A DNA stretch of 64,000 bases from a virus. The position numbers and the translations under genes are program-made. Where the stretch lies: positions 41,023 through 105,022 of the IMG/VR virus record IMGVR_UViG_3300020392_000008; one strand, 5' to 3'. The notes under the pieces were generated by a model. It ran no database searches, was not told the origin of the DNA, and saw nothing but the letters and a program-made list of their open reading frames with translations. Below are positions 8,561 through 55,822 of the stretch, in pieces; the first letter of the stretch is position 1, and each line of letters begins with the position of its first letter.

Positions 8561-8562
8561 TT

Positions 8563-15361: not shown

Positions 15362-15408
15362 TTATTTAAGATTTATTTAGTTTATTTATCTAAATATATC
15401 TTTGTGGT

Positions 15409-18613: not shown

Positions 18614-18678
18614 ACTTTAAAACTTTTATATATTATACTAAATAAAAAATAAAGATAAATAAAAAAAAATACACCTAA

Positions 18679-28671: not shown

Positions 28672-28694
28672 ATAATAAAAACACTTGTCAGTTA

Positions 28695-41167: not shown

Positions 41168-43324
41168 TTAAGCTATATTAAAATTAGGTAAAATTTTATT
41201 AGCACTTGCTATTGCTCTATTTGGACTATTCCCCCAACCTGCATTTGCTCCAGCATATTTAGCAATAGCATCCTGGTTATTAGCAAAGCCATTTATATCT
41301 ATCCCTGCTTTTTTAAATGAATTTATGAAATATTTAATTGCTACTTCAGCTGCAGTATCTACATTATTTAATAAGTCAGGATTGTTTACTAAATCTAAGC
41401 CCGTGTCTTTTGCCCATTGTTTGTATTGTTGTTTAAATGTTATTCCATTAAAACCTCTTCCTCTATACTTATATCCGTCCCCGGGTAAAACTGGATCGTT
41501 CTTTTTATTGTTCCAAGTATGATACCCATTTTTTACACCTATGTGTCCATATATTACATCATAAAAAGCAACATCATTCATCTTTAGTTTACTTAATTCT
41601 GAGTCAGTTAGGTGTTTTAAAGGCCCGCTAAATAAATCTCTTAATCTAGCATTGCTTGTTCCACTGTATGAATATTCTGATTTTGGTTTAAAATGTGTTT
41701 CTTTTCCAATAACAGTCAGCATTCCTATTAAACTATGTGGATTGGTAATACCTAAAGACTTAGCCTTATTGATCAGTACATTAATATTTTTAGCTCTAGT
41801 TCCAGTGTATTTATGTGTAACTTTTCCATTCAGATTAGTTGATGTTGATGTGTCAGTTGAGTTAGTACTCGTCTGTCCCGCTTCTTTAAATATATTTTGA
41901 ACAAACTTAGCATCTTCAGGGCTTAATTCAATTGCATTATTAGTTCCTAATTTGTCAGAGCCTGATTTATTATATGGTTTTAAATAAAATTTATTTAACT
42001 TTTTATTATAAACTATATCTACTTGAGGCTTCGAAGCCGGTTCTGTGCTAGTTTTACCTGGGCCACTGTCAGGCGCGCTTAAAATATTATCCGATGGACC
42101 TGTTCCGTCTATTGGACTAGATTTTACTCTGCCATCCCTATACATATCAGCTAATCTAGTATCGCTAGCTTGCTTTATATCTTTTATTTTATTTGCAAAT
42201 CTTTTAAGTCCTCCTTTTTCAAGTATCATATCTGAAAATTTACTAATTGAATTTTTATGTTCTATAACAGCTCTTTTAATTATAAAGTCTGAGCTAGTAG
42301 ATATATCTTTATTATCTACTTTTAGTATACTTCCAGGAAGCAAGGTCGGTATAGTAATATTTGCTAATTTTTCTATGAATTTATCAGGTGAACCTACTGT
42401 TACTCCTACGGTATTTGTTGAAGTAGAACCTCCTTTACTACTTGACTTAGATGGAACATATTTAACTCCCTTAGTTATAGATGCCAAAAGGCTCTTATCT
42501 ATCGGAGCGTCTGATTTTATATTGTTTTTAGATTTCCAATCTGCTATTGCATTGTTTGTTTTTGTTCCAAGTTCTCCGTCTACTCCATCTTTATTTGGTC
42601 CAAAATTTCCCAGATCATATCCTGCTTTTTTAAGGGCACTTTGTATATCTTTTATGTCATTTTTAGAAAGTCCTCCAACATATTCCTCTGAAGAAAAATC
42701 AGTTTTTGCATTCGCAACCGTTTTTGCAACCGTTTGTTCAAATTTATCATTTCTATGACCTTTAAAATAATCTATAAAACCTAATAAACTACCCTGTGAC
42801 ATTTTTCTAGTATTTCTTCCAACTCTGTGCCCTTCTCCGGATAGTTTATCATTAGTATTTCCTTCAATAGTGGTAAATGTTTTATTTTTAGAATCAACAG
42901 CCGTAACTATACCAGTATGGCCTCCACCTTTACGACTTTGAATAAATACTTGCCCGGGTTTTACTAAACTTGGATTAGATCTAGCTTTAGAAATAGGTAT
43001 TTTTAAAGAAGCATCAGCCCTATTCCAGTGCTTAAGAACACCGGCAGTTCTCACTACAGGATTCTTAACTCCCATTTCTTTACAAAAATCATCAAACATA
43101 GCGTATACAAAAGCTGCACACCATGGGTATCCTTTATTACCCATTGCTCTATTATCTAATCCTACTAAATCAAAATATCTATCTATTTCTTTACTTCTGT
43201 TTGATCCAGATGGTATTTCCCTTACATTTACGTTTTTAGCAAGCGTATCTGCATATGGAACAGCCATTTGATCAGGATCTCCATTAATAGCGGCTTCGCT
43301 TAATATTTCTCTAAAAGACCTCAT
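41168..43324 (-). CDS. Multidomain peptidoglycan hydrolase: CHAP amidase, PG-binding domain and GH19 lysozyme
   Basis: YPWCAAFV/GHTGIV/IEGNT (CHAP); IQSALKKAGY...GVDGELGTKT (PG_binding_1); KETHF and YRGRGFNGIT (GH19). Confidence 0.88.
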   Translation of the reverse strand: MRSFREILSEAAINGDPDQMAVPYADTLAKNVNVREIPSGSNRSKEIDRYFDLVGLDNRAMGNKGYPWCAAFVYAMFDDFCKEMGVKNPVVRTAGVLKHWNRADASLKIPISKARSNPSLVKPGQVFIQSRKGGGHTGIVTAVDSKNKTFTTIEGNTNDKLSGEGHRVGRNTRKMSQGSLLGFIDYFKGHRNDKFEQTVAKTVANAKTDFSSEEYVGGLSKNDIKDIQSALKKAGYDLGNFGPNKDGVDGELGTKTNNAIADWKSKNNIKSDAPIDKSLLASITKGVKYVPSKSSSKGGSTSTNTVGVTVGSPDKFIEKLANITIPTLLPGSILKVDNKDISTSSDFIIKRAVIEHKNSISKFSDMILEKGGLKRFANKIKDIKQASDTRLADMYRDGRVKSSPIDGTGPSDNILSAPDSGPGKTSTEPASKPQVDIVYNKKLNKFYLKPYNKSGSDKLGTNNAIELSPEDAKFVQNIFKEAGQTSTNSTDTSTSTNLNGKVTHKYTGTRAKNINVLINKAKSLGITNPHSLIGMLTVIGKETHFKPKSEYSYSGTSNARLRDLFSGPLKHLTDSELSKLKMNDVAFYDVIYGHIGVKNGYHTWNNKKNDPVLPGDGYKYRGRGFNGITFKQQYKQWAKDTGLDLVNNPDLLNNVDTAAEVAIKYFINSFKKAGIDINGFANNQDAIAKYAGANAGWGNSPNRAIASANKILPNFNIA

Positions 43325-43338
43325 AATATTATATAATT

Positions 43339-43839
43339 TTATTTATTTAAATGGCGATCTAATATTATCAACTGCCATTCACTTATCTTAGGGTAAGCCT
43401 CTTCAGCTGTTAAAAAACCTGCCCAGTCAACTTCTTCTGCTTGTAACTGATTTTTAGGTATTCTTAAACTATTCATCTTTATTTCAGATAAATCTTCTAT
43501 TTTGTGTAAAAAATAAATTAATTGCTTTTCAACATTTCCATTTTTATCATATAAATCACATACGTATGGCTCAGACTTTGAAAGTATGGAAGCATTTAAT
43601 TCTATTCCTGTTTCTTCTTTAAGTTCTCTAATAGATCCTGTTAAAACGTCTTCTCCTTTTTCTACTTTTCCTTTAGGTATTCCTAATGTTCTTTTTTGCC
43701 AACTGGCGTTAGTTGGATGAACTAGTAAAATTTTATTATCATGTATTATACATACGCCTGCTACTTTATTTTCAATAGAATCATCTACATCTTTCCACTC
43801 TTCGTTTAACACAGATTTCAAGCTTTTAAACGATTTCAC
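43339..43839 (-). CDS. NUDIX hydrolase
   Basis: Nudix box GKVEKGEDVLTGSIRELKEETG. Confidence 0.9.
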   Translation of the reverse strand: MKSFKSLKSVLNEEWKDVDDSIENKVAGVCIIHDNKILLVHPTNASWQKRTLGIPKGKVEKGEDVLTGSIRELKEETGIELNASILSKSEPYVCDLYDKNGNVEKQLIYFLHKIEDLSEIKMNSLRIPKNQLQAEEVDWAGFLTAEEAYPKISEWQLIILDRHLNK

Positions 43840-44621
43840 TTTTTAGCTTTACTTTTTTTAACGTTTGCCCAGGGTTTACTAGGCGTAGCTTTGTTTACTC
43901 TTGCCATTGCCCATCCGTGTGCAGTCATGCCTGGTCTAGACCCTGAACTATAAAATGCTCCTAGTCCTTTAATGTATTCGGCTTTTAAACTTCCAAAAGT
44001 ATATCCTTTTTTATTTGCAACCTTTCTTATTTTTGCTTCAGTTGCTTTACTTAAAGTTTTTTTCTTTTTCTTTTTCTTTGCTTTTTTAGCTTCATTAATA
44101 GGTTCAGTATCTTTATTTCTTATGCAAAGTTCTCCTAATACTTCTATTTTACCTACTATTTCTTGAAATTTCTTTTGAGTAATGTCCATGTCTTTAGAAG
44201 TTGACTCAACTAATTCGTTTATTAAGTCATCATACTCGTCTTTAAAGTTTGACATATCAAAGTTTCCTTTAGCCGCTTTTTCATAATATGGTATTTTAAC
44301 TTTAAAATGATCATACGAAAGCATAGAAAAACCTCCTTTTTCTTTAGAGCTACTTACTGTGTTTTTTGCACTATCACCTCTTTTTTCCGCAAATTCTGTT
44401 AAATCTACTTTTGGGTCTATTGTTTCATTAGTTTTTTCTCTTTCATCTGCCTCCATCTTATCCCTAATTTCATAAGCTTTCTTTTTATCGGCTTCAGAAC
44501 CTTTTAATAACTTTTGAACTTTTTTCAATAAAGTATCTCTTTTACTACCCTTAGGCGCTTTATATTCAGAAGGATGCTCTTCTTTTAAATATTCAGTATA
44601 ACTTTTTATAGGCTTATTCAT
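43836..44621 (-). CDS. Hypothetical protein with N-terminal tag and basic C-terminal domain
   Basis: MNKPIKSYTEYLKEE; C-terminal GLGAFYSSGSRPGMTAHGWAMARVN. Confidence 0.75.
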   Translation of the reverse strand: MNKPIKSYTEYLKEEHPSEYKAPKGSKRDTLLKKVQKLLKGSEADKKKAYEIRDKMEADEREKTNETIDPKVDLTEFAEKRGDSAKNTVSSSKEKGGFSMLSYDHFKVKIPYYEKAAKGNFDMSNFKDEYDDLINELVESTSKDMDITQKKFQEIVGKIEVLGELCIRNKDTEPINEAKKAKKKKKKKTLSKATEAKIRKVANKKGYTFGSLKAEYIKGLGAFYSSGSRPGMTAHGWAMARVNKATPSKPWANVKKSKAKK

Positions 44622-44624
44622 TTT

Positions 44625-44903
44625 CTATTTCTTTTTTTTATTTAAAATCTTTTTTACTTTTTCCCTAACTTTTTCCATTTTTTTAGCATAGGTAGGGTTA
44701 CTTTTTTTATTAAAGTTTATTTGTTGGTTTAAGCTTCCTGTTATCTTTCTCATATCACTATTTCTAGTTTTAATTAGCCAATCAGCAAGTGCTTTTATAC
44801 CTAATTCTTTAAACTTTCCATTTGCATCAGGTGCATCTGAATGATGAAACTTCAATCTTTTTTTCTCGTTTAGAACAAAATTTTTAAAATTTAATAGTTT
44901 CAT
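44625..44903 (-). CDS. Small basic protein with N-terminal tag
   Basis: MKLLNFKNFVLNE. Confidence 0.7.
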   Translation of the reverse strand: MKLLNFKNFVLNEKKRLKFHHSDAPDANGKFKELGIKALADWLIKTRNSDMRKITGSLNQQINFNKKSNPTYAKKMEKVREKVKKILNKKKK

Positions 44904-44909
44904 TTCTTT

Positions 44910-45233
44910 TTATTTTTTATTTGATTTAGTTTCATTTATTTTTATAAAACTATTAAAATCAATTACTTCACTTTCTATAGTAATAAAATCAAGTTCTTTA
45001 GGTTCTTCTTGTTGGGCAGGAACCGGAACTGTTTTTGTTTTATTCATTATAAAATCAAAAACCTGATCCATATTTTCTTTAGCCACTGACACATGATCGT
45101 CTGCCCAATCATGTCCGTGTTGTAAAATTTTATCCAACATACTATGATCCATTTGATACAACATAGTTGTTTGTCTCATAATTTGTTCTAGGTTTTTAAA
45201 AAACATATAATTTTCTTGCTCATGATGTGCCAT
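44910..45233 (-). CDS. Hypothetical protein with C-terminal tag
   Basis: NYMFFKNL...HGHDWADDH; ends TIES-EVIDFNSFIKINE. Confidence 0.7.
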   Translation of the reverse strand: MAHHEQENYMFFKNLEQIMRQTTMLYQMDHSMLDKILQHGHDWADDHVSVAKENMDQVFDFIMNKTKTVPVPAQQEEPKELDFITIESEVIDFNSFIKINETKSNKK

Positions 45234-45234
45234 T

Positions 45235-45501
45235 TTAATCTTTCTTTATTTTATATATCGCTATTCCTGTTCCCTTTATAACCCTATGCCAAATTCCTTT
45301 TGGAATAGTTAAAGTTTCCCCGGGATTTACGTTTTTTGGTAATTCATCTTCTAATTGAATTTGCCAGTTGTTATTGTTTAAAGCTTCTATTTCCCTATCT
45401 TCTAGGTCTCTATGCCATTTAAAATCTTCTGAATCAGTAGATTCTTTAAATGTTCTAATAACAACGTCATTTTCTATTGTATGTTCAGTATATGGGTTCA
45501 T
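45235..45501 (-). CDS. Cupin-fold protein
   Basis: WHRD..DRE, IPKGIWHRVIKG; start placed at MNPYTE. Confidence 0.75.
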   Translation of the reverse strand: MNPYTEHTIENDVVIRTFKESTDSEDFKWHRDLEDREIEALNNNNWQIQLEDELPKNVNPGETLTIPKGIWHRVIKGTGIAIYKIKKD

Positions 45502-45509
45502 ATATATAT

Positions 45510-46091
45510 TTACCAGTATCCTGGATATGTTTTTCCTCCCCAAAGATGGGCGTATTTGTTAATTCTACAAGACCAATATCCTGCTTTTGTTTTATCTTTT
45601 TTAGTGCTACATTTATGACGAGCAGCAAAACTTTTTCTAGCTTTAGGATCACTTACTTTGGCTTTTAGTCCTGTTGTATCTCCTATCTGTAACATTTTAA
45701 CATTTCCAGTTTTAGGATTTCTAACATATACTTTAAATTTTTTAGATCCTCCTCGCGTTGGATAATTAAGTTTAACTTCCCTGCCTTTATATTTAGCTTC
45801 ATTTAAAATAAAATCTTCTAAAGGTAAATCGAGTGGAACCGTATGTCCTTCGTATACTCCTACTTTACCTAAATCGGTTTCATCAAAAAGAATTGCGTCA
45901 TCGTAACCTAATTTTAGTTTACCTAAAGAGTAAAGTTCCCTAGCCTCTTTAAGAATTTCTATGTGAGAATGGCTTCCTGGTCTAAATACTGTTTCGACAA
46001 TAGATATTGAATTATCTATATGGTATTGTAAATTTTCAGAAATTGGATTTATACCAGTGTATTCACTAAATGATTTTATTCTATTTTTCAT
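45510..46091 (-). CDS. Hypothetical protein with N-terminal tag and basic C-terminal domain
   Basis: MKNRIKSFSEY; LNE-AKYKGR; ARKSFAARHKC...GYWSC. Confidence 0.75.
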   Translation of the reverse strand: MKNRIKSFSEYTGINPISENLQYHIDNSISIVETVFRPGSHSHIEILKEARELYSLGKLKLGYDDAILFDETDLGKVGVYEGHTVPLDLPLEDFILNEAKYKGREVKLNYPTRGGSKKFKVYVRNPKTGNVKMLQIGDTTGLKAKVSDPKARKSFAARHKCSTKKDKTKAGYWSCRINKYAHLWGGKTYPGYW

Positions 46092-46260
46092 AATTGTTTT
46101 TTCTTATAGCTTTATTTTTAATATTTCTTTTTCGCTCAGAGTTTTTAGTATATGTCATTCTATTTTTTAATTCTTTATGAATTTTAGTATCCTTGGCTTT
46201 CTTTTTATACTTTTTTAATGCGTATTCTATTTTTCCATTTATTACTTTAATTATTAACAT
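46081..46260 (-). CDS. rpsU: Ribosomal protein bS21, Bacteroidota-type (missed by the ORF track)
   Basis: Manual translation: MLIIKVINGKIEYALKKYKKKAKDTKIHKELKNRMTYTKNSERKRNIKNKAIRKNNYEK*; matches the bS21 pattern I-[ED]-x-ALK-x-[YF]K...EL..R..Y.K.S..R. Confidence 0.88.
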   Translation of the reverse strand: MLIIKVINGKIEYALKKYKKKAKDTKIHKELKNRMTYTKNSERKRNIKNKAIRKNNYEK

Positions 46261-47014
46261 TTATACTCCTTACTTTATTTTTAAACCATGTAGGTATATT
46301 GTATCCATAATGGTGTTCATAAATTTTTATATACAATTGATACGATTGTTTTTCGTCTAAGCTATTACATTTGTTTATACTTTTTAAGTAATATTTACCT
46401 AAATCTGATTCGTATATAGTAAGACAATATGCGTCAAATTTATGACCTTCTGACACTTTATTATTTATGTGTTTTATTGCCCTACTTAATTTTTTAGACG
46501 GAACAACTTCAAAGTTTTGATTGTTTATGTTTTCATGAACAGAAACTAAATCATTATTAAACATTAATATTTTGTATCTTGTTTTAGGGTTTATCTTTTC
46601 TTGAAACTTATCATAACTATTTTCAGATTTTTTAAATTTATACAAAGAATTATACGTATTAGATCCGTTTTTACCAGTTGCTATTATTGGAAACTTTAAA
46701 CGTTTAACGTTGTTTCTATTCTTAACTACTTTTGGAATAAAAGACTCCCCTACATATTTGTTAAGGTGATTATAACCTTTTCTAAAATTAAAGGAATTGT
46801 ATACTGTGTAATTGTTTGATTCATTTAGCCTAGTAATTCTAAAATCATTACATATTAACACAGGCATATTTGAGGCCTCGTTTAATGATTCTATTTTAGA
46901 AAAAGGAGATTTATAATTAGCTTCATCGTTTATTAAAATATAAACTTTATTAACTATATCCTTTTCTTCACCGTTTATATACTTTTCATATTCATTAAAT
47001 GATCTGATGTTCAT
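46247..47014 (-). CDS. Degenerate ATP-grasp (RimK-like) protein with N-terminal tag
   Basis: FIPKVV, LKFPIIA, FQEKI...YKILMF, GKYYLKSIN (catalytic ExN absent). Confidence 0.5.
   Translation of the reverse strand: MNIRSFNEYEKYINGEEKDIVNKVYILINDEANYKSPFSKIESLNEASNMPVLICNDFRITRLNESNNYTVYNSFNFRKGYNHLNKYVGESFIPKVVKNRNNVKRLKFPIIATGKNGSNTYNSLYKFKKSENSYDKFQEKINPKTRYKILMFNNDLVSVHENINNQNFEVVPSKKLSRAIKHINNKVSEGHKFDAYCLTIYESDLGKYYLKSINKCNSLDEKQSYQLYIKIYEHHYGYNIPTWFKNKVRSINVNN
46266..46271 (-). promoter_or_regulatory. Shine-Dalgarno AAGGAG of the phage rpsU gene
   Basis: The minus strand reads TAAGGAG-TATAA-ATG. Confidence 0.65.
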
Positions 47015-47081
47015 AGTTCTTTAAAAGGCTATTTTTTTTTATTTATTTGTCGTATATATAAAATAAAATACATTTCATTAC

Positions 47082-48215
47082 ATGAAGACTATAAAAAGCT
47101 TTAGTGATTTTGATAAACAAGATAATCACGTAGATGAACAACTATTTAAAAGAGCTAGAGAAAAACGTAGAGAAAAGAAAGCGTTAAAGCAAGCAGACTC
47201 TCAAATGAATCCAAATGCAAGTGACGACAAAATAAGAGGAGTAAAAGGAAAAGAAGTATACACGGATTCTCAAGGTACTAGACATAAAGTAGTTTGGAAA
47301 GCACAGGATTCAACAAATTTTATTGTAAAGTTAGTTAATGATTATGATTGGTTAGATGCTAATTCAAATTTAACTCAAAATGGATCAAATGCCCTTTTAG
47401 AATTTTTAAATGGAGAAAATTCATTTACAAATCAATATGGAAAATTAGATGATGTATTTTTTCAAAAAAATATAATAGCTTATTCTGTTAGAGTAGATAC
47501 TGATAGGCGCCAAAAATTGCAATTTACAATATTAAATAAAGAAGCTATGATAGCTAAGCAAACTCAAAACGCTACAGACGGCGCTGAATTAGCTGACCTA
47601 ACAAATGTTACTTTTATTAATGCAAAAGATTTAATGACGATTGATTCAGGTATAGCTAAAAATCAAAGCATACTTTCAAATACCGAAGTTCCTGTTGAAA
47701 ATGAAAACGATGGAAAAGTTGATGATCAAGATAATCAAGAAAATACTAATCAAGAAATAGACAATGAAGAAAATAATGATATAGTAGATGAAATACCACT
47801 ACCAAATTCTGATTTAATAGGTAAGCAGTTTGAATATCAGAGCGGCGCAGACGGTAAGCTATACATTATAACAATAGATGAAGGCGATAATGGTCAACTA
47901 GAGTTTTACGCTAAAGCAAAAGATGGATCTAATGAAGGTTGGGTATATTTAAAAGACGGTGAGCCTTTTTGGAAAAACGCAGATGGAACTTCTTCAGCAA
48001 TAACAAATGCTAAAGATATTGAATTTTTTAAAAGAATTTATACTGATGAAGCTTATTTAAGACAATTAATAGCCGAATTTGAAGCAAAATATCCAAACGG
48101 AGCTGACTGGACTATTAAAGATATATTATTTTACACAGACGGTAATAAAATATATCAAGAAGAAGTTGCTACTGATGAAGAACAGCCTACAGTAAATGTA
48201 GCCGTCGCAAATTAA
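47082..48215 (+). CDS. Hypothetical protein with N-terminal tag
   Basis: MKTIKSFSDF; acidic central linker. Confidence 0.75.
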   Translation: MKTIKSFSDFDKQDNHVDEQLFKRAREKRREKKALKQADSQMNPNASDDKIRGVKGKEVYTDSQGTRHKVVWKAQDSTNFIVKLVNDYDWLDANSNLTQNGSNALLEFLNGENSFTNQYGKLDDVFFQKNIIAYSVRVDTDRRQKLQFTILNKEAMIAKQTQNATDGAELADLTNVTFINAKDLMTIDSGIAKNQSILSNTEVPVENENDGKVDDQDNQENTNQEIDNEENNDIVDEIPLPNSDLIGKQFEYQSGADGKLYIITIDEGDNGQLEFYAKAKDGSNEGWVYLKDGEPFWKNADGTSSAITNAKDIEFFKRIYTDEAYLRQLIAEFEAKYPNGADWTIKDILFYTDGNKIYQEEVATDEEQPTVNVAVAN

Positions 48216-48223
48216 AAATAAAA

Positions 48224-49849
48224 ATGAGTCAAATGTTATACAAAAAAAATACACTTCCAACTTGGTATTCTAACTATGGTCAAATTCTGAATGAACAAAA
48301 CGCAACAGTGACTGTTTTTTCAGATGACGCAAAAGAAAGATTGAAACAATATTTAGATTCTAATAAAAACCTATTAGCTGAAATAAATGAACTATATCAA
48401 AAAGTAGCTGATGGTAAAATGGAAGAAGCCTATATTTCTTTAGACGGATCTAAATATAAAGTAAAACCTGGAGATGAACTTTCTTTAACCATAGACAGAA
48501 CAGACGAAGGTTCTCCTAAAGTAATATTATCAATAGAAAATGAAAAAACATTATTAGGGGACTTAAACCTTTCAACAATTGCTGGTTATGTTTATAAATC
48601 AATGGATGGAATGGGAACATATGAAGACATGTTTGCCTCTTCACTAGCAGCTATTCACATGGATTTAGCATCTAGAAATGTATCAGCTAGAGGTGTTCAA
48701 AGAGTATTTGATATATTTAACTCAAAAGTATTTGGAACAAAATACGAGGGAGAAACCCTTGATCAGTGGATAGATGGCGATTTTGATGGAAGAGCCGAAG
48801 CATGTGCAATGGCCCTTGCTAAAAGACCTATTCCTAAATCAATTATAAGGGGAATTAGTTGGGGAACAGTGTTTACTGATTTAGGATTATTAGTATTAGC
48901 TATTCCTACATTAGGAGGCTCCTTGGCTGCTTCTGGAATAGGTAGAGCAGCAATGGCTGGCGGAAAAGCTACAAAAAGGGTAGTAAGCGCAGTTGGTAAA
49001 TCAAAAAGAATGACTAAGGCTGCTCAAAAAACTAAAGCTATTGGTAAAGCAATAAAATCAGGAAAAACCTTTCAAAGAATAACCAAACCAATGATAAAAG
49101 GTTGGAATGCAATGTCTAAATCAGCAAAGCTTACTCACGCTAAAAAGGTAATGCCCGTAGGAAAAGAACTAAACTGGATTGCTAAAAATGGTAAAGAATC
49201 AACCGTTAAAATAGTAAAGTATTTTAAAAATAAAGCCGGTAACTGGATGGTACAGGTTAGAAACATAGGTGCAAAAGGACAAAACGCAGCAGGTGGCTTT
49301 TCTGCAAGTCTTGATACGCTTATGGTGCAAGCAGGTAAACCAGGTGGAATTACAATGAAAACTGCTACTAAATTAGCTACAGCAGCAGGTTTAGTTGGAG
49401 TTCTTCAAAAAGGTGAAACTGGAAATTTAGAAGGTATAGCAGGCGAAGATGAACAAATGGATGATATGTTTAATCCATACAACCCTACTGAGTTATTAGG
49501 ATATTATGATCAAACTAATGCAGACCCCGCTAAAGCAATGCGTCAATACAAACAATTTGCCGCTAAAGAATTAGCAACTATGTTATATGATGCAATGGAT
49601 GGATGGACAGATAATTCTGATGAAATGGCAATAGCTTTAATGATATTAAGTATGGATAAACAAACCGCAATAGACGTACAAAAAGAATATCAAGCCGCTT
49701 ACGCAGGAAGCAATTTTTACGAAGATGTTATAGCAGACGAACTTGAATCAGATATGGAACAAATAGTAGGTTGTTATTGGGCAGCAATGACTGGTACAGG
49801 GCCTTATGTTTCAATGGTTAAACAAAAATTAGCAGCAGCTAAAAAGTAA
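48224..49849 (+). CDS. Protein with two annexin-like repeats flanking a TM hairpin and a basic region
   Basis: YKSMDGMGTYED...LDQWIDGDFDG and LYDAMDGWTD..DE..I...VQKEYQAAY...IADELESD resemble annexin repeats. Confidence 0.65.
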   Translation: MSQMLYKKNTLPTWYSNYGQILNEQNATVTVFSDDAKERLKQYLDSNKNLLAEINELYQKVADGKMEEAYISLDGSKYKVKPGDELSLTIDRTDEGSPKVILSIENEKTLLGDLNLSTIAGYVYKSMDGMGTYEDMFASSLAAIHMDLASRNVSARGVQRVFDIFNSKVFGTKYEGETLDQWIDGDFDGRAEACAMALAKRPIPKSIIRGISWGTVFTDLGLLVLAIPTLGGSLAASGIGRAAMAGGKATKRVVSAVGKSKRMTKAAQKTKAIGKAIKSGKTFQRITKPMIKGWNAMSKSAKLTHAKKVMPVGKELNWIAKNGKESTVKIVKYFKNKAGNWMVQVRNIGAKGQNAAGGFSASLDTLMVQAGKPGGITMKTATKLATAAGLVGVLQKGETGNLEGIAGEDEQMDDMFNPYNPTELLGYYDQTNADPAKAMRQYKQFAAKELATMLYDAMDGWTDNSDEMAIALMILSMDKQTAIDVQKEYQAAYAGSNFYEDVIADELESDMEQIVGCYWAAMTGTGPYVSMVKQKLAAAKK

Positions 49850-49856
49850 TTTATTA

Positions 49857-49883
49857 AAACTATACACAGTAGCTAGGTATAAT
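49857..49883 (+). promoter_or_regulatory. AAAC-N16-GTATAAT promoter
   Basis: Intergenic, upstream of the 49901 gene. Confidence 0.65.
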
Positions 49884-49900
49884 AAAATAAAAGTTTAATT

Positions 49901-50410
49901 ATGACACAAGTTAAAGAAGATTCAAAACCCGTTGAGGAAAAAGTTGAAGCAACTAAACCTGTTGAAAAAACGGAAGATCAACCAAAAGAAGAAAAAAAAC
50001 TAACACCCGAAGAAACTTTAGAAAAATTAAGGGATTTTAGAAAAAACGGGAGTATATCTTTAGATATTAGCTATTCTGATTTTAAAAAAATTAGAAATAC
50101 TTTTAAAAACGATATTCCGTGGGAAGGACCTAATCAGGCTTATCTATTAACTATTCTAATGTTAGGGTTAGAAGCTGCCCTATCCACAATGGACCCTAAA
50201 AATAAAGAAACTCAAAAAGTTCCATTAAAAAATGACTCTATTGAGTCTATTGCGTTTTTCTTAAATAAAATAAATGGTAAAAATTCTCATTCTGCTCAAA
50301 ATTCTTTAGGTATGTTTTTTGCTTTACAACAAGCTATTGCTCAATTAAAGCAAGTTGATAAAGAAATAGCTGACCTATCTCCTAAAGAAAAAACAAATGA
50401 CACTAAATAA
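49901..50410 (+). CDS. Hypothetical protein
   Basis: 169-aa ORF with AAAC-N16-GTATAAT upstream. Confidence 0.75.
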   Translation: MTQVKEDSKPVEEKVEATKPVEKTEDQPKEEKKLTPEETLEKLRDFRKNGSISLDISYSDFKKIRNTFKNDIPWEGPNQAYLLTILMLGLEAALSTMDPKNKETQKVPLKNDSIESIAFFLNKINGKNSHSAQNSLGMFFALQQAIAQLKQVDKEIADLSPKEKTNDTK

Positions 50411-50468
50411 TAATTTTTTGTTTTTTGTTAAATAAAGCAGATATATAAATAAAATAAACATTAGTAAA

Positions 50469-50825
50469 ATGAAAAGAAAAATTGCTAACTTTAATTCTTT
50501 CATGAAGAATAAATTAAATGAAATGGAAGAAATGGATAACGAATTCGCAATGAGCATGGATGCTTATTCAGAAGCGCCTGAAGAAGATATGGAAGATAAC
50601 ATGGAAGAAGATCCAGATCTAGACATGGACGAAGAAGGAGATGAAGAAGAGGAAGAGCTTACTATGGAAGACCTTAAAGCTATCGTTGACGACCTTGAAG
50701 AAAGACTATCTGCATTAGAAGGCGGAGAAGAAGAAGAGGAAGAAGGCGAAGAGGAAGAAGAAGAAGGTGAAGAAGAGGAAGGCGAAGGCGAAGAAGAGGA
50801 AGAAGAAGCAGACGAAGAAATTTAA
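50469..50825 (+). CDS. Extremely acidic poly-Glu protein with N-terminal tag (prohead-core gp67-like)
   Basis: IANFNSFMKNKLNE followed by a Glu/Asp-rich body; TATAAATA upstream. Confidence 0.7.
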   Translation: MKRKIANFNSFMKNKLNEMEEMDNEFAMSMDAYSEAPEEDMEDNMEEDPDLDMDEEGDEEEEELTMEDLKAIVDDLEERLSALEGGEEEEEEGEEEEEEGEEEEGEGEEEEEEADEEI

Positions 50826-50857
50826 TTATAGCTAAGTTTTTATACAAAAAAATTAAA

Positions 50858-50902
50858 GGCACAGATAGCTAATCAATTATTTTTAATTAGCTGTTTGTGC
50901 TT
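50858..50902 (+). terminator. Imperfect hairpin, possible terminator
   Basis: GCACAGATAGCTAAT...ATTAGCTGTTTGTGC followed by TTATTT. Confidence 0.5.
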
Positions 50903-50916
50903 ATTTAGCTTTATAA

Positions 50917-51336
50917 ATGGACTCTAATAAAATAACATCAATTCCCTTATTTGAAAACTATTGTAAACAATCTACAATAGATAATAAGATTATTGACTGT
51001 AATATTGGAGAAAATTCTATTAAATTAAAAGTAGCCTCTACTCCTAAATCTCATTCTATCGGGTATCAAAATGTAAAAGAAGAACCTTCTGATAAAGAAG
51101 GAATATTATTTGTATACCCTAGCGAATGCCTTTCATCTTTCTGGATGAAAAATGTAAATTTCCCATTAGACATACTCTTCTTTAATTCAAATAAAGAACT
51201 AGTAGGCAATCAAACTATGCCTAATAATAGTTACCCAAAAACTTTTAAATGTAATAAACCCTTTCAATATGCAGTTGAAACAAAAGCAGGTTGGTTTGAC
51301 AGGAATGGAAATAAAGACATAAAATTATCAATATGA
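50917..51336 (+). CDS. DUF192 family protein
   Basis: VASTP, GILFVY, FWMKNVNFPLDILF, YAVETKAG. Confidence 0.85.
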   Translation: MDSNKITSIPLFENYCKQSTIDNKIIDCNIGENSIKLKVASTPKSHSIGYQNVKEEPSDKEGILFVYPSECLSSFWMKNVNFPLDILFFNSNKELVGNQTMPNNSYPKTFKCNKPFQYAVETKAGWFDRNGNKDIKLSI

Positions 51337-51512
51337 AAACATCATATAATAGAAAAGACTTAGATTGTAAAATATGCGGCGAAACTGTAAATAACGTAGG
51401 ACTTGAAGCAACTGCGGTCACCTGTTGGAAATGTGTTAATGAACAGCTAAAAGGAATGCCTATTTTTATATCAGACTCTTGTGAAAATGAAGAAAATGAA
51501 AACGAGGAATAA
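51333..51512 (+). CDS. Small Zn-finger-like protein, 59 aa (missed by the ORF track)
   Basis: MKTSYNRKDLDCKICGE...VTCWKCV...; ATGA overlap with the DUF192 gene. Confidence 0.7.
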   Translation: MKTSYNRKDLDCKICGETVNNVGLEATAVTCWKCVNEQLKGMPIFISDSCENEENENEE

Positions 51513-51978
51513 ATACGTATCACTGTATAATTCATTCAAGTATAATGATTATTATGAAGTATTACTTGAAGAATATTCTAATCAATCTAAATATAAAACA
51601 TTTAAAAGCTTTGTAGTAAATAAAGCAAAGAGGGTAAAGGATATATCTAAAAATGTTATAAACGCCTTTAAAAAGGAAGGAACAGAAACAACTGACATGC
51701 TAAGTGTTTTTAACAGACAGCTTCGTAAAAAATTAAATTTAAAAACTAGAAAAGATGTTCCTACAAAAGAAGAATTAGATGAAGCATTAAATCAATTAAA
51801 AGACATACCCAAACTTCTTCCATATGCAATCGTAATGTTAGCAACTCCCATACCTGGTTCCTCAACAATGTATACCGTCTTTGCTTATTTTCTAAAGAAA
51901 AGATCTAATGGTAAAATAAACCTGTTGCCAGATTCTTTTGATGACATATTATCAACTAAAGTAGATAACAAAGACTAG
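51496..51978 (+). CDS. Hypothetical protein with hydrophobic PIPG hairpin
   Basis: ALNQLKDIPK...PIPGS; start placed at MKTRNK (the ORF track starts at GTG 51481). Confidence 0.65.
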   Translation: MKTRNKYVSLYNSFKYNDYYEVLLEEYSNQSKYKTFKSFVVNKAKRVKDISKNVINAFKKEGTETTDMLSVFNRQLRKKLNLKTRKDVPTKEELDEALNQLKDIPKLLPYAIVMLATPIPGSSTMYTVFAYFLKKRSNGKINLLPDSFDDILSTKVDNKD

Positions 51979-51989
51979 TTTTTTGCACA

Positions 51990-52021
51990 TATGTCATATC
52001 TTAAATAAAATAAATGACATA
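51990..52021. promoter_or_regulatory. 8-bp inverted repeat upstream of the sigma54 promoter
   Basis: TATGTCAT-N16-ATGACATA. Confidence 0.55.
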
Positions 52022-52039
52022 ATTTCCAATTTAATTTAA

Positions 52040-52055
52040 TGGCACATTTTTTGCA
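52040..52055 (+). promoter_or_regulatory. Sigma54 (-24/-12) promoter of hsp20
   Basis: TGGCAC-ATTTT-TTGCA with exact consensus spacing, ending 26 nt before the ATG. Confidence 0.75.
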
Positions 52056-52081
52056 GAGTATACATTAAAAACAATAAACAA

Positions 52082-52441
52082 ATGAGACAAACAAATCTTT
52101 TAAAAAATTTCTTTTCAATAGCAGATGAGGCTTTTTATAATAATAAAATACCTTCTTTTTTCTATGAAACTACTAAACTTGAAAATTCAATAGAAGTAGA
52201 AATGATTCTTCCAGGGTATACTAGAGATGAATTAAATATTACATCGGATAGTGAAGATTTATTAATAGAAACTAATGAAAAATTTAAAGAAAATAAATGG
52301 AAAATACCATTGAAAAGAGCATTTAAATTATCTGATAATCTAGATAGTAAAAATATTAACGCAAAACTTGAAAACGGAATATTAACAATTAGTATTCCAA
52401 ATAAAGCAAAGGCTAAAAAAAGAAACATTAGTATAGATTAA
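52082..52441 (+). CDS. Small heat shock protein Hsp20
   Basis: LPGY...L.I, RAFKL, INAKLENGILTISIP. Confidence 0.9.
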   Translation: MRQTNLLKNFFSIADEAFYNNKIPSFFYETTKLENSIEVEMILPGYTRDELNITSDSEDLLIETNEKFKENKWKIPLKRAFKLSDNLDSKNINAKLENGILTISIPNKAKAKKRNISID

Positions 52442-52466
52442 TATTAAAATTTAATTATTTTAAACT

Positions 52467-52493
52467 AAGGGAATTTTACAATTCCCTTTTTTT
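52467..52493 (+). terminator. Intrinsic terminator after hsp20
   Basis: AAGGGAATT-TTAC-AATTCCCTT followed by a T-run. Confidence 0.8.
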
Positions 52494-52508
52494 ATTTAGT
52501 TTATTTTA

Positions 52509-52535
52509 AAACCGTCTATTAAATTCCGGTATAAT
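52509..52535 (+). promoter_or_regulatory. AAAC-N16-GTATAAT promoter
   Basis: After the terminator and upstream of ugd. Confidence 0.65.
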
Positions 52536-52562
52536 AAAATATATTACAAAATCTTAATTTAA

Positions 52563-53528
52563 ATGAAGTTAGAAAATAAAAATATTGGAATAGTAGGTCA
52601 GGGATTTGTAGGAACGGCCGTTAAAGAAAAATTAAAAGAATCTAAAACAATTTACGCATATGATTTAGATGATTCTAAATGTGGAATATTTAGTACAAAA
52701 GATGAATATAAACCTACTGATATTCCACTATTAGTGGATAATTGTGATATAATATTTGTGTGCGTACCTACTCCTATGTATGCTACTGGAAAATGCAACA
52801 CTGGTATAGTAGAAAATGTTCTTACTGAAATAAATAATTCCACATACACTAGTAATAATTTTTCAAAAAACACAATTGTTATAATTAAATCAACAATACC
52901 ACCAGGTACAACTGAATCCTTTAATAAAAAATATAAAAACATAGGTATTGTTTTTAGTCCTGAATTTTTAACAGAAGCTAATTCAATTGAAGATTTTAAA
53001 AATCAAAATAGAATAATTTTAGGTATAGATTGGGCAGAACATATTAAACCTGTAACAAAGGTTTTTAAAGATGCTTTTCCAGATGCAGAAATAGCTGTGT
53101 TAAATACAGCTGAAGCTGAACTTACTAAATATATGACAAATTTATTTTTAGCAACAAAAGTAAGTTTTTTTAATGACATGTATAAATTAACAGAGTCCAT
53201 TAATAACTCAGAAAATTTAGCTGTTTCTCAAAAAATAAAATTTGACTCTGTTGTAGACGCTACACTGTTAGATCCAAGAATAGGAAAATCTCATACATTA
53301 GTACCAGGTCCCGATGGAGATTTTGGCTATGGAGGTCATTGTTTCCCTAAAGACATGGCAGCTATTTTAAGTTTAGCAGATCAATTAGGCGCATCGTTGC
53401 CTACTTTATTTGGTGCAAGCACTACTAATTCTATAGTTAGAACAGATAGAGACTGGGAAAAAATGGAAGGGAGAGCAGTTTCTAATGATGAAAAAACTTT
53501 TGAACACGTTTTTCCACATGAGCTTTAA
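52563..53528 (+). CDS. ugd: UDP-glucose/GDP-mannose dehydrogenase family protein
   Basis: GIVGQGFVG, FVCVPTP, IKSTIPPGTT, FSPEFL, AELTKY..N, GYGGHCFPKD. Confidence 0.9.
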   Translation: MKLENKNIGIVGQGFVGTAVKEKLKESKTIYAYDLDDSKCGIFSTKDEYKPTDIPLLVDNCDIIFVCVPTPMYATGKCNTGIVENVLTEINNSTYTSNNFSKNTIVIIKSTIPPGTTESFNKKYKNIGIVFSPEFLTEANSIEDFKNQNRIILGIDWAEHIKPVTKVFKDAFPDAEIAVLNTAEAELTKYMTNLFLATKVSFFNDMYKLTESINNSENLAVSQKIKFDSVVDATLLDPRIGKSHTLVPGPDGDFGYGGHCFPKDMAAILSLADQLGASLPTLFGASTTNSIVRTDRDWEKMEGRAVSNDEKTFEHVFPHEL

Positions 53529-53820
53529 TAAAAAACACATACCGGCAAAGAAAAACTTTTTAAAAAAAGAGTATTTAAAAATAGGTCATGATAAATTCAT
53601 AAAAAAATATCGTAAATATGACGCTTTTATAGTAGGAAATTATACAAATTCATTTTTTATAAACTGGGTCATATATGAAAATAAAAAGTACGTATTTATT
53701 GTGTATGAATTATGTCAATTTTTATATAGAATAAAAGAATTAGGATTAAAAGGAATAATAAGTAATTTAAATTATAAATTAAAAAAAAGAATAAAATATG
53801 TATTGGGTAGCAAAAGTTAA
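53518..53820 (+). CDS. Hypothetical protein
   Basis: ORF filling the gap; start placed at MSFNKK. Confidence 0.5.
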   Translation: MSFNKKHIPAKKNFLKKEYLKIGHDKFIKKYRKYDAFIVGNYTNSFFINWVIYENKKYVFIVYELCQFLYRIKELGLKGIISNLNYKLKKRIKYVLGSKS

Positions 53821-53998
53821 ATTTGAATCTATAAACGACAATAACGGTAAAATACAAACCACCAAAGAAGAATATTTAGTTTCAGCTGAATCCGTTACTG
53901 AAGTTGAAGAAAAATTAAATACTAAATTTGGAGAAGGAATGTCAGAATTTTCAGTGTCAGGAGTCGCCGAATCTAAAATAATGGGAATAGTAGAATAA
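53798..53998 (+). CDS. DUF4494-like protein
   Basis: EEYLVSAESVTEVE...VAESKIM. Confidence 0.7.
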   Translation: MYWVAKVKFESINDNNGKIQTTKEEYLVSAESVTEVEEKLNTKFGEGMSEFSVSGVAESKIMGIVE

Positions 53999-54300
53999 TG
54001 CAAGAATTAATATACCACGACGATATAAATAAACAAGAGGTTGATTTAAATAATCAAGAAAACTTGGCAGACAACGAATTTATTTCAAAAAGAGTTTCTG
54101 AAATACGAAACAGTATACAGGAACTATTTAAAGAATTAGACGAGGTGGTATCTATGTGTAATCATAAAGATGGACATGACGTAAAGCTTATAGCAAATAG
54201 TAAACTAGATTCAGGAGGTTTAAGGAGAGTTTGTAAAATATGTAAAACACCCATTGGATATGCTAGTAAAAAAGAAGCAGATGAGTGGCAAAAAGACTAA
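53998..54300 (+). CDS. Hypothetical protein with CxH...CxxC motif
   Basis: MCNH...VCKIC. Confidence 0.7.
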   Translation: MQELIYHDDINKQEVDLNNQENLADNEFISKRVSEIRNSIQELFKELDEVVSMCNHKDGHDVKLIANSKLDSGGLRRVCKICKTPIGYASKKEADEWQKD

Positions 54301-54607
54301 TCAAAAAATAAAGTCAAGTAAATCTGAAGCCATATACGATGTTTTTATAAAAACTTTAAATTGCTCTTCTAATTATTATGAAAAGGAAGCTTTTGTATAT
54401 CATCATTCAGTAGTTTCCCACGATATAAAAAAGTATAGGCTTAAATCAAATGAAAAATGTAATAGCGTTAGTTGGAGTTTTACTATAAGCGCCTGTGAAA
54501 TGGTACAATTTAAATGCAAAGATGGTACCCCAATGAATGTCTTTTTAGAGTCTATTGCTTTACAAAATAAAGTAAATTCTCTAGTAAATTACATATTAAA
54601 AAATTAA
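54281..54607 (+). CDS. Hypothetical protein
   Basis: ORF within an operon; start uncertain. Confidence 0.55.
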   Translation: MSGKKTNQKIKSSKSEAIYDVFIKTLNCSSNYYEKEAFVYHHSVVSHDIKKYRLKSNEKCNSVSWSFTISACEMVQFKCKDGTPMNVFLESIALQNKVNSLVNYILKN

Positions 54608-54608
54608 A

Positions 54609-55040
54609 ATGCAGGTATTAAAGGTTCCATTAGTAAAAGACTCATTATTTGAAAGAGAGCTAAAAAAATATCTCTTATATAGAATGGACTTATTATTTAA
54701 AGAATACAACAATAATATACCTGACACTATTTCATGTAAAGGTCACTTAGGGAAGCATGTATTTAATATTATAACTAGTAATAATTGGAAATTTGGTTCA
54801 ACTAAAATAGTTCACGAGAAGGGTCCTAATGCAATAGAGATAAGGTTCGACAATGGTATAAGCATAGAAAAAAATTCTAAATTATCAATGGGCACCGGTT
54901 CAACTATGGATGGTAGAGTAATTGAAGGATTTATAGATTCTAAAAGCCAGGCTTCTATTATACAATCTTCCATAGATAATAATTTTACTATAGAAAAAAT
55001 TGTTAACCCCAAGGTTATTATAAAGTTAGAAAAACTATGA
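54609..55040 (+). CDS. Hypothetical protein
   Basis: 143-aa ORF within an operon. Confidence 0.65.
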   Translation: MQVLKVPLVKDSLFERELKKYLLYRMDLLFKEYNNNIPDTISCKGHLGKHVFNIITSNNWKFGSTKIVHEKGPNAIEIRFDNGISIEKNSKLSMGTGSTMDGRVIEGFIDSKSQASIIQSSIDNNFTIEKIVNPKVIIKLEKL

Positions 55041-55742: not shown

Positions 55743-55822
55743 TATTTTTATTTTATTTATCTTAAATTAATATATTATTTTAAATGAATTACGCGTATAA
55801 ATAATAAAAAAGGTTTTTATAA

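Follow-up and report, generated by a model that had tools for sequence, protein, structure and literature searches.

A phage-encoded annexin-repeat protein with a split repeat pair, a candidate for virion delivery and membrane docking

The F0 locus and its family

The window analyzed here is the whole 64,000-nucleotide stretch covering positions 41,023 to 105,022 of IMG/VR virus record IMGVR_UViG_3300020392_000008. It comes from a marine, T4-like phage that is uncultured and has a large genome, and the host is probably a Bacteroidota bacterium. Note that a giant-virus origin, hinted at by a DUF5824 domain in a neighboring gene, was rejected since the window carries a T4-type terminase, neck, baseplate and lysin. 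The locus contains the following elements.

41168..43324, minus strand: tagged lysin F7, with CHAP, peptidoglycan-binding and TseP-type lysozyme domains as assigned by Pfam
47030..47069, plus strand: promoter-like element upstream of the F2-annexin operon, a T-rich block followed by TATATATAAAATAAAAT
47082..48215, plus strand: F2, the operon partner (377 aa), directly upstream of the annexin gene
48224..49849, plus strand: F0, the annexin-repeat protein gene, a real open reading frame of 541 aa plus stop

The F0 family comprises 43 representatives at 50% identity, 26 of which were recovered at E≤1e-30. The members reside on contigs classed as viral with conserved phage synteny, and the synteny around F0 is fixed down to 24% identity. 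As this conserved family shows, the annexin module is used by phages. No cultured relative was found by tblastn of the window protein and the distant member L010 against 50,697 deposited phages. Furthermore, comparison of the window protein with PHROGs gave nothing usable, an ESM Atlas look-up gave no usable match, and a Foldseek search of its AlphaFold model against the BFVD viral structures gave no meaningful match.

Annexins are textbook Ca2+-dependent membrane binders of eukaryotes and are rare in bacteria. A literature search of open-access papers and bioRxiv found no published annexin in viruses or phages. The only systematic survey found lists none in viruses (PMC3894181).

Two annexin repeats and the regions around them

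The F0 protein was divided into the following parts, all on the plus strand.

48257..48295, plus strand: N-terminal linear motif, residues 12-24, P-T-W-Y-S-N-Y-G-Q-I-L-N-E
48311..48553, plus strand: N-terminal alpha/beta domain, residues 30-110, three helices and three strands
48560..48823, plus strand: annexin repeat 1, residues 113-200, five helices
48848..48943, plus strand: marginally hydrophobic Gly/Ala/Thr-rich segment, residues 209-240
48944..49159, plus strand: Lys-rich, largely helical stretch, residues 241-312, helices at 264-296 and 299-309
49160..49318, plus strand: small beta-barrel, residues 313-365
49319..49525, plus strand: second weakly hydrophobic small-residue stretch plus acidic linker, residues 366-434
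49526..49846, plus strand: annexin repeat 2 plus C-terminal helix, residues 435-541 (repeat 435-525)

Structural comparisons were made with one AlphaFold model (mean pLDDT 64.5, pTM 0.52, no PAE). The five-helix annexin fold, on which the original prediction had staked itself, appears twice in this model as two five-helix annexin bundles. Specifically, the helices of repeat 1 span residues 116-127, 134-150, 155-173, 179-186 and 189-198, and those of repeat 2 span residues (435)450-460, 464-476, 479-492, 498-504 and 509-523. The top 11 PDB matches in VIA-align all belonged to the annexin family (Z 13.9-9.1), the next unrelated structure having a Z of 6.6, and the best 50 Foldseek matches in the PDB were all annexins or annexin fusions. 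Alpha-11 giardin aligned with a Z of 13.9 and an rmsd of 3.4 Å over 169 residues across model positions 114-541. Domain 1 of annexin I (1bo9) superposed on repeat 1 over 73/73 residues at 1.7 Å (Z 9.1), and the annexin-like domain of astrotactin-2 matched repeat 2 over residues 439-525 (Z 10.1). In addition, two-repeat portions of giardins and several annexins could be superposed at 3.1-3.5 Å on 169-177 residues covering both repeats; the repeats, 240 residues apart in the chain, are modelled as packing like one annexin two-repeat module.

As the original prediction had proposed, two annexin-like segments are present in the protein, Y124-K-S-M-D-G-M-G-T-Y-E-D ... T178-L-D-Q-W-I-D-G-D-F-D-G and L454-Y-D-A-M-D-G-W-T-D-N-S-D-E ... 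V502-I-A-D-E-L-E-S-D, and by Pfam, family profile and fold their annexin resemblance goes far beyond chance. The Pfam search suggested at that time gave a divided result: the window sequence alone had no Annexin match at E≤1, but 13 of 29 homologs matched PF00191 at E≤0.01. The 25-bit gathering score was reached by 6/10 tested homologs (25.7-31.2 bits), these six orthologs being 59-66% identical to the window protein. The matches in homologs fell at both repeat sites, with those of P0015 and P0020 at the repeat 1 site, and covered positions 3-62 of the 66 in the profile. The family profile also found classical multi-repeat annexins at whole-library E values of 1.5e-7 to 1e-4 (1.84 billion proteins), and annexins appeared in a PDB sequence-profile search at weak E values only (0.1-0.4). 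A search of genome contigs with the A1 profile returned bacterial annexin-repeat giants only and no family members. An hhalign comparison of repeat 1 with repeat 2 aligned 25 columns only at a weak E of 0.014, so that sequence does not establish an internal duplication. Chance similarity of helical bundles in a protein unrelated to annexins could be argued from the missing Pfam match of the window protein, the weak PDB-profile and repeat-repeat values, and the middling Z that helical repeats can attain by chance; however, orthologs above the gathering score, whole-library significant matches to classical annexins, two structure aligners with only annexins at the top and a clear gap to the next fold, and conservation of G-x-G-T-x-E plus (D/E)-x-(S/D/G)-G-x-x-E make it highly improbable. 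Judged from sequence and model together, the window protein is a genuine annexin-repeat protein with two repeats.

Residues at the putative Ca2+ sites were compared across the family. Repeat 1 has a canonical type II loop between helices A and B, M127-D-G129-M-G131-T132-Y-E134, with Asp in place of the Lys of the annexin M-K-G. S126, M127, D128, G129, G131, T132 and E134 are invariant in A1, and down to 24% identity G131 and T132 stay invariant and E134 is at least 90% conserved. The acidic cap motif of repeat 1, W-I-D-G-D186-F-D-G-R-A-E192, reads E-x-E-F-S-G-R-A-E in distant members; G189 and E192 are invariant, D186 is unchanged throughout A1, and distant members carry an acidic residue there, mostly Glu. 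Repeat 2 has a variant loop, M458-D-G460-W461-T462-D-N-S-D-E467, which is acidic with Trp at its tip, two residues longer than the canonical loop, without G-x-G-T, and invariant in the close clade; distant members have G-S-G-(L/F/I/W)-(F/W)-G-N-T-T. The invariant residues of repeat 2 are G460, T462, E467 and the acidic cap E506, the last lying in D-E-L-E-S-D (D-E-L-G-G-D in distant members). By alignment only, an acidic capping residue in the D/E turn appears to be retained in both repeats. The loop tips keep hydrophobic or aromatic residues and, in distant members, carry inserted Gly/hydrophobic stretches; the two features together constitute a putative membrane-insertion signature.

The protein thus resembles eukaryotic annexins and alpha-giardins (for example annexin A4/A5/A8/XII, alpha-11 and alpha-14 giardin) in its five-helix repeat fold, in a G-x-G-T-x-E loop that joins helices A and B, in the acidic cap at the D/E turn, in a hydrophobic residue at the loop tip, and, in the model, in two repeats packed as a tight module (Z 12-14, about 170 residues, 3.2-3.4 Å). 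On the other hand, it is phage-encoded, has two repeats rather than four, splits them by a 240-residue insert, precedes them with a 110-residue alpha/beta domain, and has the longer W-T-D-N-S loop instead of G-x-G-T in repeat 2. Bacterial annexins are mostly from Bacteroidota, some with extra domains and transmembrane regions (Kodavali et al. 2014, PMC3894181). Features in common with F0 are one to five repeats that often act in pairs, a conserved GxGTD motif in which x is hydrophobic or Trp, non-annexin extra domains, predicted transmembrane regions and a marine bias; in contrast, F0 is viral and its split-pair architecture is not among the architectures described in the cited sections of that survey. 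Among cellular proteins, repeat 1 is most similar (33% identity) to one annexin repeat in a giant annexin-repeat protein from a proteobacterium.

Outside the repeats, the N-terminal alpha/beta domain was predicted with a pLDDT of about 70-82 and had a weak PAS-like match only (Z 5.7). Between the repeats, a transmembrane hairpin had been predicted. A Gly/Ala-rich, weakly hydrophobic segment does exist there, but our measures support neither a hairpin nor a classical transmembrane helix: one moderate hydropathy peak was found at residues 211-240 (Kyte-Doolittle maximum 1.69), and the best 19-21-residue window scored +3.5 kcal/mol on the Hessa scale (+1.7 to +7.7 in 23/23 aligned relatives), values that are rough because the scale as used is position-independent. 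At +3.5 kcal/mol, the segment at residues 209-240 is not a classical transmembrane helix. An integral membrane protein with a transmembrane hairpin was consequently rejected, as hydrophobicity is too low and an invariant Asp lies inside the segment. R209, G210, D219 and G231 do not vary across the wider family, nor does P228 within the close clade; AlphaFold confidence is <50 over the hydropathy peak. The segment looks more like a conditional insertion element; it is too weak for constitutive Sec insertion, as would be expected if the protein must stay soluble before delivery. The Lys-rich region that had been predicted next to it was clearly found, with 29 K/R against 2 D/E over residues 241-350. 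The pLDDT is mostly about 75-86 over residues 290-350 and lower near 351-360; the small beta-barrel had weak Tudor/CarD-like matches only (Z 5.3-5.4). Residues 366-434 hold conserved A-G-K-x-G-G and E-T-G-N-L-E-G motifs at low pLDDT.

The N-terminal tag and the operon

The ILNE string noted earlier near the N-terminus occupies residues 21-24 and ends a motif with the grammar aromatic-x-x-aromatic followed by L-x-E (Y15-S-N-Y18-G-Q-I-L22-N-E24). The pLDDT is <50 over most of residues 1-28, predicting disorder, and within this stretch neither Y18 nor E24 varies down to 24% identity, and A1 has only L, I or V at position 22. The strict tag pattern, which was defined post hoc, occurred in 13/14 F2, 12/12 F5 and 9/15 F0 proteins, with 6/15 F0 relatives fitting a looser version only, and in none of seven other conserved families (background 2.7%). 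T4 ipII and ipIII start with MKTYQEFIAE, which has the same grammar, and the determinants of the T4 capsid-targeting sequence have been described (PMC9026906). The motif may therefore be regarded as a candidate capsid-targeting and protease-cleavage signal. Note that the prohead protease (PF03420, T4 gp21) and the T4 gp23 capsid gene were unmatched in the records G000, G001, G004, G005 and G006, which are 25-54% complete and in which the protease controls were silent; these negatives are uninformative because the records are fragments.

The resemblance to T4 internal proteins extends further. As in the capsid targeting sequence of IPI-IPIII, an N-terminal aromatic-x-x-aromatic is followed by (L/I)-x-E (Mullaney and Black 1996, as reviewed in PMC9026906 and PMC3012670), the tag is common to unrelated protein bodies, and the basic region could bind DNA. 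The genes also have a lysozyme gene and a NUDIX gene as neighbors of their cluster, an arrangement known from T4 ipII-ipIII-e-nudE. In contrast to the T4 proteins, the F0 motif starts at residue 15 instead of residue 4, and the F0 protein is much larger, lacks sequence homology to them and appears membrane-directed, its packaging and cleavage being putative.

Upstream of F2, the promoter-like element of the window differs by one base from the late-type core [AGT]ATAAATAA, and all distant loci have ...TTTTTATTATTTAT-N4-7-AGATAAATAAAATAAA upstream of F2. The core occurs 42 times in the genome, with 21/42 occurrences within 50 nt upstream of gene starts (0.9 expected), and the genes that have it upstream include the baseplate wedge gene. 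F2 is directly upstream of F0 wherever both are present, with gaps of 6-28 nt. The F2 protein consists of an N-terminal tag (MKTIKSFSDF...HVDE) with an invariant E19 at its end, two beta-rich domains and an acidic linker; its fold had no known match (best Z 4.5). P0044 is a natural F2-annexin fusion (hhalign probability 100%, E 3e-53) in which the F0 motif is kept internally.

The lysin F7 starts with MRSFREILSE, lies directly after F0 in L010/L011, and resembles a T6SS-delivered amidase-lysozyme effector. In P0058, an F0 relative is fused to a domain 55% identical to F7 residues 500-642 (E 4e-49), which in turn matches the TseP lysozyme 8xcl (E 6e-8). P0044 and P0058 each come from one metagenomic prediction, and errors in assembly or gene calling may have produced them. 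T4 e (lysozyme) and nudE adjoin the T4 ip genes, so neighborhood alone does not prove packaging.

Proposed delivery to the host envelope and alternative functions

The context of F0, that is, the tag motif, the late-type promoter in relatives, the operon and the fusions, favors a virion-delivered envelope protein in our analysis. As a whole, a virion-delivered, envelope-docking annexin protein is the best explanation we can offer, held with about equal belief and doubt. F0 would be made late together with its operon partner F2, loaded into the virion via the T4 CTS-like N-terminal motif and clipped after L22-N-E24. At infection, virions would release both F0 and the tagged lysin into the host envelope. 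Seawater or periplasm rich in Ca2+ would let the annexin pair dock on the head groups of anionic phospholipids; after docking, contact of the weakly hydrophobic segment and of the Lys-rich stretch with that leaflet would anchor or seal the site of entry. As judged by sequence, the protein may serve as a conduit, a seal or an anchor. In the fuller version, an annexin packed into the head via the T4-like tag and clipped is ejected with a lysin into a Ca2+-rich marine periplasm; Ca2+ would switch its split pair onto the inner membrane and thereby make the weak hydrophobic segment and the Lys-rich stretch insert, so as to build or seal the DNA entry site. This version is put forward tentatively, as a proposal more doubtful than not. 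Several points weigh against the best explanation: no deposited phage in the tblastn search carries the family, no gp21-type protease or gp23 gene was matched in the five fragmentary records, the tag pattern is post hoc and 6/15 F0 relatives fit its looser version only, the window's own F2 promoter departs from the core by one base, the window protein by itself has no Pfam Annexin match, repeat 2 has no canonical G-x-G-T, the repeat packing comes from one AlphaFold model, the two fusions may be artefacts, and late expression with a neighboring lysin also fits a lysis-related role.

Membrane-active ejection proteins of tailed phages include T7 gp14/15/16, P22 gp7/gp20/gp16 and the SPN3US E proteins (general background and PMC7411985). 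Like these, F0 is proposed to be soluble in the virion, to be released with the DNA and to engage the host envelope together with a peptidoglycan hydrolase. These ejection proteins have no homology to F0, whose role is a proposed one, and are not known to use annexin repeats.

The architecture of F0 is unusual, a split repeat pair surrounding a putative conditional membrane segment. Operon structure and natural fusions connect the family with a cell-wall hydrolase as well as with a tagged partner. If the head-packed reading is true, F0 would be the equivalent, in a virus of prokaryotes, of membrane docking and repair by annexins, and the trait would be conserved across an entire clade of uncultured marine phages. 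Delivery, if it occurs, would provide a testable handle on inner-membrane handling during genome entry by large myovirus-type phages, suggest environmental Ca2+ as a trigger, and carry the concept of T4 capsid targeting over to a distant marine lineage in which many cargo proteins are tagged.

Alternatively, F0 could be an unpackaged annexin-repeat membrane binder that acts inside the infected cell late in infection, which we consider possible yet rather unlikely. Its site would, just as tentatively, be the cytoplasmic face of the inner membrane, reached via the weak hydrophobic wedge, the Lys-rich stretch and the annexin pair, and its roles could include lysis timing, lysin export, anchoring of head or tail assembly, or membrane remodelling. 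The late-type promoter class is common to structural and lysis genes, the peptidoglycan hydrolase adjoins F0 and has its lysozyme domain fused to it in one relative, and the T4 precedent of e and nudE beside ip genes shows such neighborhoods to be no proof of packaging. In addition, the protein has no signal peptide, and under the positive-inside rule the strongly basic stretch that follows the hydrophobic segment suits a position in the cytoplasm. However, free cytoplasmic Ca2+ is very low and would suit an annexin-type site poorly. Being internal rather than N-terminal, the hydrophobic segment does not qualify as a signal anchor of the SAR type, and its hydrophobicity falls well short of a holin transmembrane segment. 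Known holins and spanins also do not resemble a multidomain protein of 541 aa. A holin or SAR endolysin was itself rejected, given the 541-aa length and a hydrophobic segment at residues 209-240 instead of the N-terminus. Furthermore, action inside the cell leaves the conserved, disordered Y...L-x-E motif, kept even within the F2-F0 fusion, without explanation.

F1 lies beside F0 in most distant loci and showed a weak tape-measure likeness in one distant locus (phrog_167, E 3e-10); the window's F1 had no Pfam or PHROG match. F1 as a tape measure was rejected, the only match being that weak PHROG one. The position of F0 beside this weakly tape-measure-like protein is one point for the idea that the annexin fold serves the virion as a structural or protein-binding scaffold, located in the inner head, tail lumen or baseplate, and does not bind lipid in a Ca2+-dependent manner. 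The absence of a canonical G-x-G-T loop from repeat 2, the Asp replacing Lys of M-K-G in repeat 1, and the existence of non-lipid annexin-like domains such as that of astrotactin-2 are in line with it. We regard this scaffold as unlikely, since in both repeats it is exactly the Gly/Thr of the loop and the acidic cap that stay invariant to 24% identity, and since the conserved hydrophobic or aromatic loop tips, the Gly/hydrophobic insertions in distant members, and the adjacent hydrophobic and Lys-rich elements point to lipid.

Annexin identity

The open reading frame at 48224-49849 (+) encodes a 541-aa protein (family F0; residue numbers refer to it), and all sequence elements quoted in the original prediction of an annexin-like phage protein were present in this product. 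By itself, the protein had no match in Pfam or PHROGs. The annexin resemblance was nevertheless borne out by its relatives, as Pfam Annexin was matched by 13 of the 29 aligned F0 members, and the 25-bit Pfam gathering score was reached by six members, with matches at both predicted sites over nearly the full 66-position profile. Close homologs numbered 35 (47-74% identity; 339-571 aa, mostly ~530-570), all of them metagenomic, TARA included. When the F0 profile was searched exhaustively against 1.84 billion representatives, 43 proteins were obtained at E<=1e-3, including ~25 full-length distant relatives, and the tail of the search reached classical multi-repeat annexins (whole-library E 1.5e-7 to 1e-4), which are annexins according to Pfam (E 1e-41 to 1e-130).

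The AlphaFold model had a mean pLDDT of 64.5, with reasonable confidence at residues ~30-210, 290-385 and 465-541 and low confidence at 212-286 and 392-449. The five-helix annexin fold, whose absence had been set beforehand as refuting the prediction, appeared as two predicted bundles. In Foldseek against the PDB, the top 50 matches were all annexins or annexin-A2 fusion chaperones, and the top eleven chains from an independent all-against-all aligner were all annexin-family, the first unrelated chain following at Z 6.6. Annexin I domain 1 was aligned over 73 of 73 residues (Z 9.1, rmsd 1.7 A), and alpha-11 giardin over 169 residues across 114-541 of the model (Z 13.9, rmsd 3.4 A). Since the alignments span both bundles, the two repeats (residues 113-200 and 435-525), 240 residues apart, are packed in the model like an annexin two-repeat module.

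Note that, among cellular proteins, repeat 1 was matched most closely by one repeat of a giant frame on uncultured proteobacterium MAG contigs (L023 1-12219 (+), and L024). The frame is longer than 4,073 aa and open at both locus ends; its classical annexin repeats match PDB annexins at E 2e-8, and hydrophobic stretches come after them.

Predicted Ca2+ sites and the insert between the repeats

In an alignment extending to 24% identity, the invariant residues included G189, E192 and the following predicted Ca2+-site residues.

G131, T132: G-x-G-T loop, repeat 1
G460, T462, E467: loop, repeat 2
E506: cap, repeat 2

The D/E turns of distant members (E-x-E-F-S-G-R-A-E and D-E-L-G-G-D) correspond to the annexin consensus. 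Repeat 1 has the canonical loop, M-D-G-M-G-T-Y-E, whose x-residue is hydrophobic; a survey of bacterial annexins reports the same for annexins of bacteria and plants (Kodavali et al. 2014, PMC3894181). Repeat 2 has a variant loop, two residues longer, which is acidic, invariant and tipped by a Trp. Distant members have aromatic pairs at this tip, and many of them have ~25 Gly/hydrophobic residues inserted in the repeat 1 loop. Such features are signatures of membrane-contacting loops. There is good support for the annexin identity and for a role directed at membranes.

The transmembrane hairpin of the original prediction was not retained. The sole clear hydropathy peak is at residues 209-240, and a classical transmembrane helix there was rejected, as the best window on the Hessa scale, computed without position dependence, was +3.5 kcal/mol (+1.7 to +7.7 in all 23 relatives). 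Asp219 and Gly231 in this segment are invariant, as is Pro228 in the close clade, and the segment resembles an element that inserts conditionally or monotopically. Between residues 241 and 350 there are 29 K/R versus 2 D/E, and residues 313-365 are confidently modelled as a small beta-barrel without a clear relative. Two annexin repeats set apart by a hydrophobic and Lys-rich stretch make an unusual architecture. The survey of bacterial annexins found none in viruses, no later report of viral annexins was found in the open-access literature, and tblastn against 50,697 deposited phages found no cultured relative.

Gene neighbourhood, N-terminal tag and promoter

We set the window's own region against eighteen loci from IMG/VR viral contigs. 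Synteny was fixed even at 24-30% identity, with a divergent F3 followed by F2 and F0 on the same strand at gaps of 6-28 nt. Flanking families were the large lysin F7, NUDIX (F11), beta-glucosyltransferase (F8), DUF6378 (F9), DUF192 (F10), the acidic protein F5, which was kept in nearly all loci covering that region, and F1, which is 630 aa long and weakly matches a tape-measure PHROG. Two natural fusions tie F2, F0 and the lysin together. P0044 is an F2-F0 fusion (hhalign probability 100%, E 3e-53), and in P0058, F0 is joined to a domain that shares 55% identity with the lysozyme domain at the C-terminus of the window lysin (E 4e-49) and matches that of the T6SS effector TseP (8xcl, E 6e-8). 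That an annexin protein is joined to a lysozyme domain suggests action at the cell envelope.

Many of these neighbours, otherwise unrelated, share an N-terminal tag, aromatic-x-x-aromatic and then (L/I/V)-x-E, which is kept on orthologs down to 24-30% identity. Tagged ORFs at window positions 43836-57094, together with the lysin, were as follows.

41168-43324, minus: lysin F7 (MRSFREILSE), 718 aa, with CHAP, peptidoglycan-binding and lysozyme domains, the last related to the amidase-lysozyme effector TseP
43836, minus: tagged protein
44625, minus: tagged protein
45510, minus: tagged protein
46247, minus: tagged protein
47082, plus: F2, operon partner of F0 (S-F-x-S-W-x-x-(L/V)-N-E in distant loci)
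50469-50825, plus: F5, 118 aa (MKRKIANFNSF...KLNE), body almost all Glu/Asp
55823, plus: tagged protein

For an endolysin, F7 is a large protein, and it may be delivered by the virion; F5 might mimic DNA or act as a counter-ion to basic cargo. The tag resembles the T4 capsid-targeting sequence (MKTYQEFIAE in ipII and ipIII), in which targeting depends on positions 4 and 7 and gp21 processing on positions 8 and 10, with gp21 cleaving after L/I-x-E (PMC9026906). In F0 it reads Y15-S-N-Y18-G-Q-I-L22-N-E24, and it is retained internally in P0044. Because residues 1-28 are mostly disordered in the model, yet Y18 and E24 are invariant family-wide (position 22 being restricted to L, I or V among close members), this N-terminus behaves as a short linear motif. 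The tag was counted in 13/14 F2, 12/12 F5, 9/15 F0 (others fit a looser form), 6/11 F7 and 4/9 F11 members and in none of seven other conserved families, against a background of 2.7% per 32-residue window; these counts are suggestive rather than proof, since the pattern was defined after the data were seen.

The promoter-like core [AGT]ATAAATAA, which resembles the T4 late promoter TATAAATA, occurs 42 times in the viral record, and 21 occurrences lie within 50 nt (15-44 nt) upstream of gene starts versus 0.9 expected. It precedes the baseplate wedge, several very large ORFs, the lysin and tagged genes, and it was found upstream of F2 in all distant loci, with a one-base variant at the window F2. 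By its sequence, it is a T4-late-like promoter class. Examples are:

18650-18678: late-type core
28665-28694: late-type core
15362-15392, minus: late-type core

The T4 gene order ipII-ipIII-e-nudE (NC_000866 65416-67490) resembles the way in which tagged proteins, lysin and NUDIX are clustered in the window phage clade, and by this analogy the arrangement may be ancient and conserved.

The best-fitting reading, to which we give roughly even chances, is that F0 would be loaded into the virion, cleaved after E24 and ejected together with the lysin. The head module, including the protease, was not found in the available genome fragments (25-54% complete). Late intracellular action of F0 at the membrane is the main alternative and a distinctly less probable one; it accounts for the promoter and the lysin link as well, but leaves the conserved N-terminal motif unexplained and fits low cytoplasmic Ca2+ poorly.

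Source phage and host

The IMG/VR viral record is 105 kb (estimated 41% complete), and the window has a GC of ~29%. Its genes include a T4-type large terminase, neck protein, baseplate wedge, tail-fibre chaperone domain and CHAP/peptidoglycan-binding lysin. A Shine-Dalgarno-like core was present in only 3 of 75 genes, and a secreted M43 metalloprotease (record 7967-9289; L019 68-1390) had a weak, below-cut-off match to the T9SS C-terminal sorting domain (E 2.9e-4); together these suggest, but do not prove, a Bacteroidota host. Along with the beta-glucosyltransferase in relatives, three window genes suggest that the phage hypermodifies its DNA with sugars.

36937-38364: DNA alpha-glucosyltransferase
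52563-53528: UDP-glucose/GDP-mannose dehydrogenase
60266-61183: NAD-dependent epimerase

The window also encodes a predicted sensor kinase, an unusual phage gene (58521-60182, minus); Pfam finds in it two PAS domains together with an ATPase domain of the histidine-kinase type (E 1e-21 and 6e-14), and a late-type promoter core precedes the gene.
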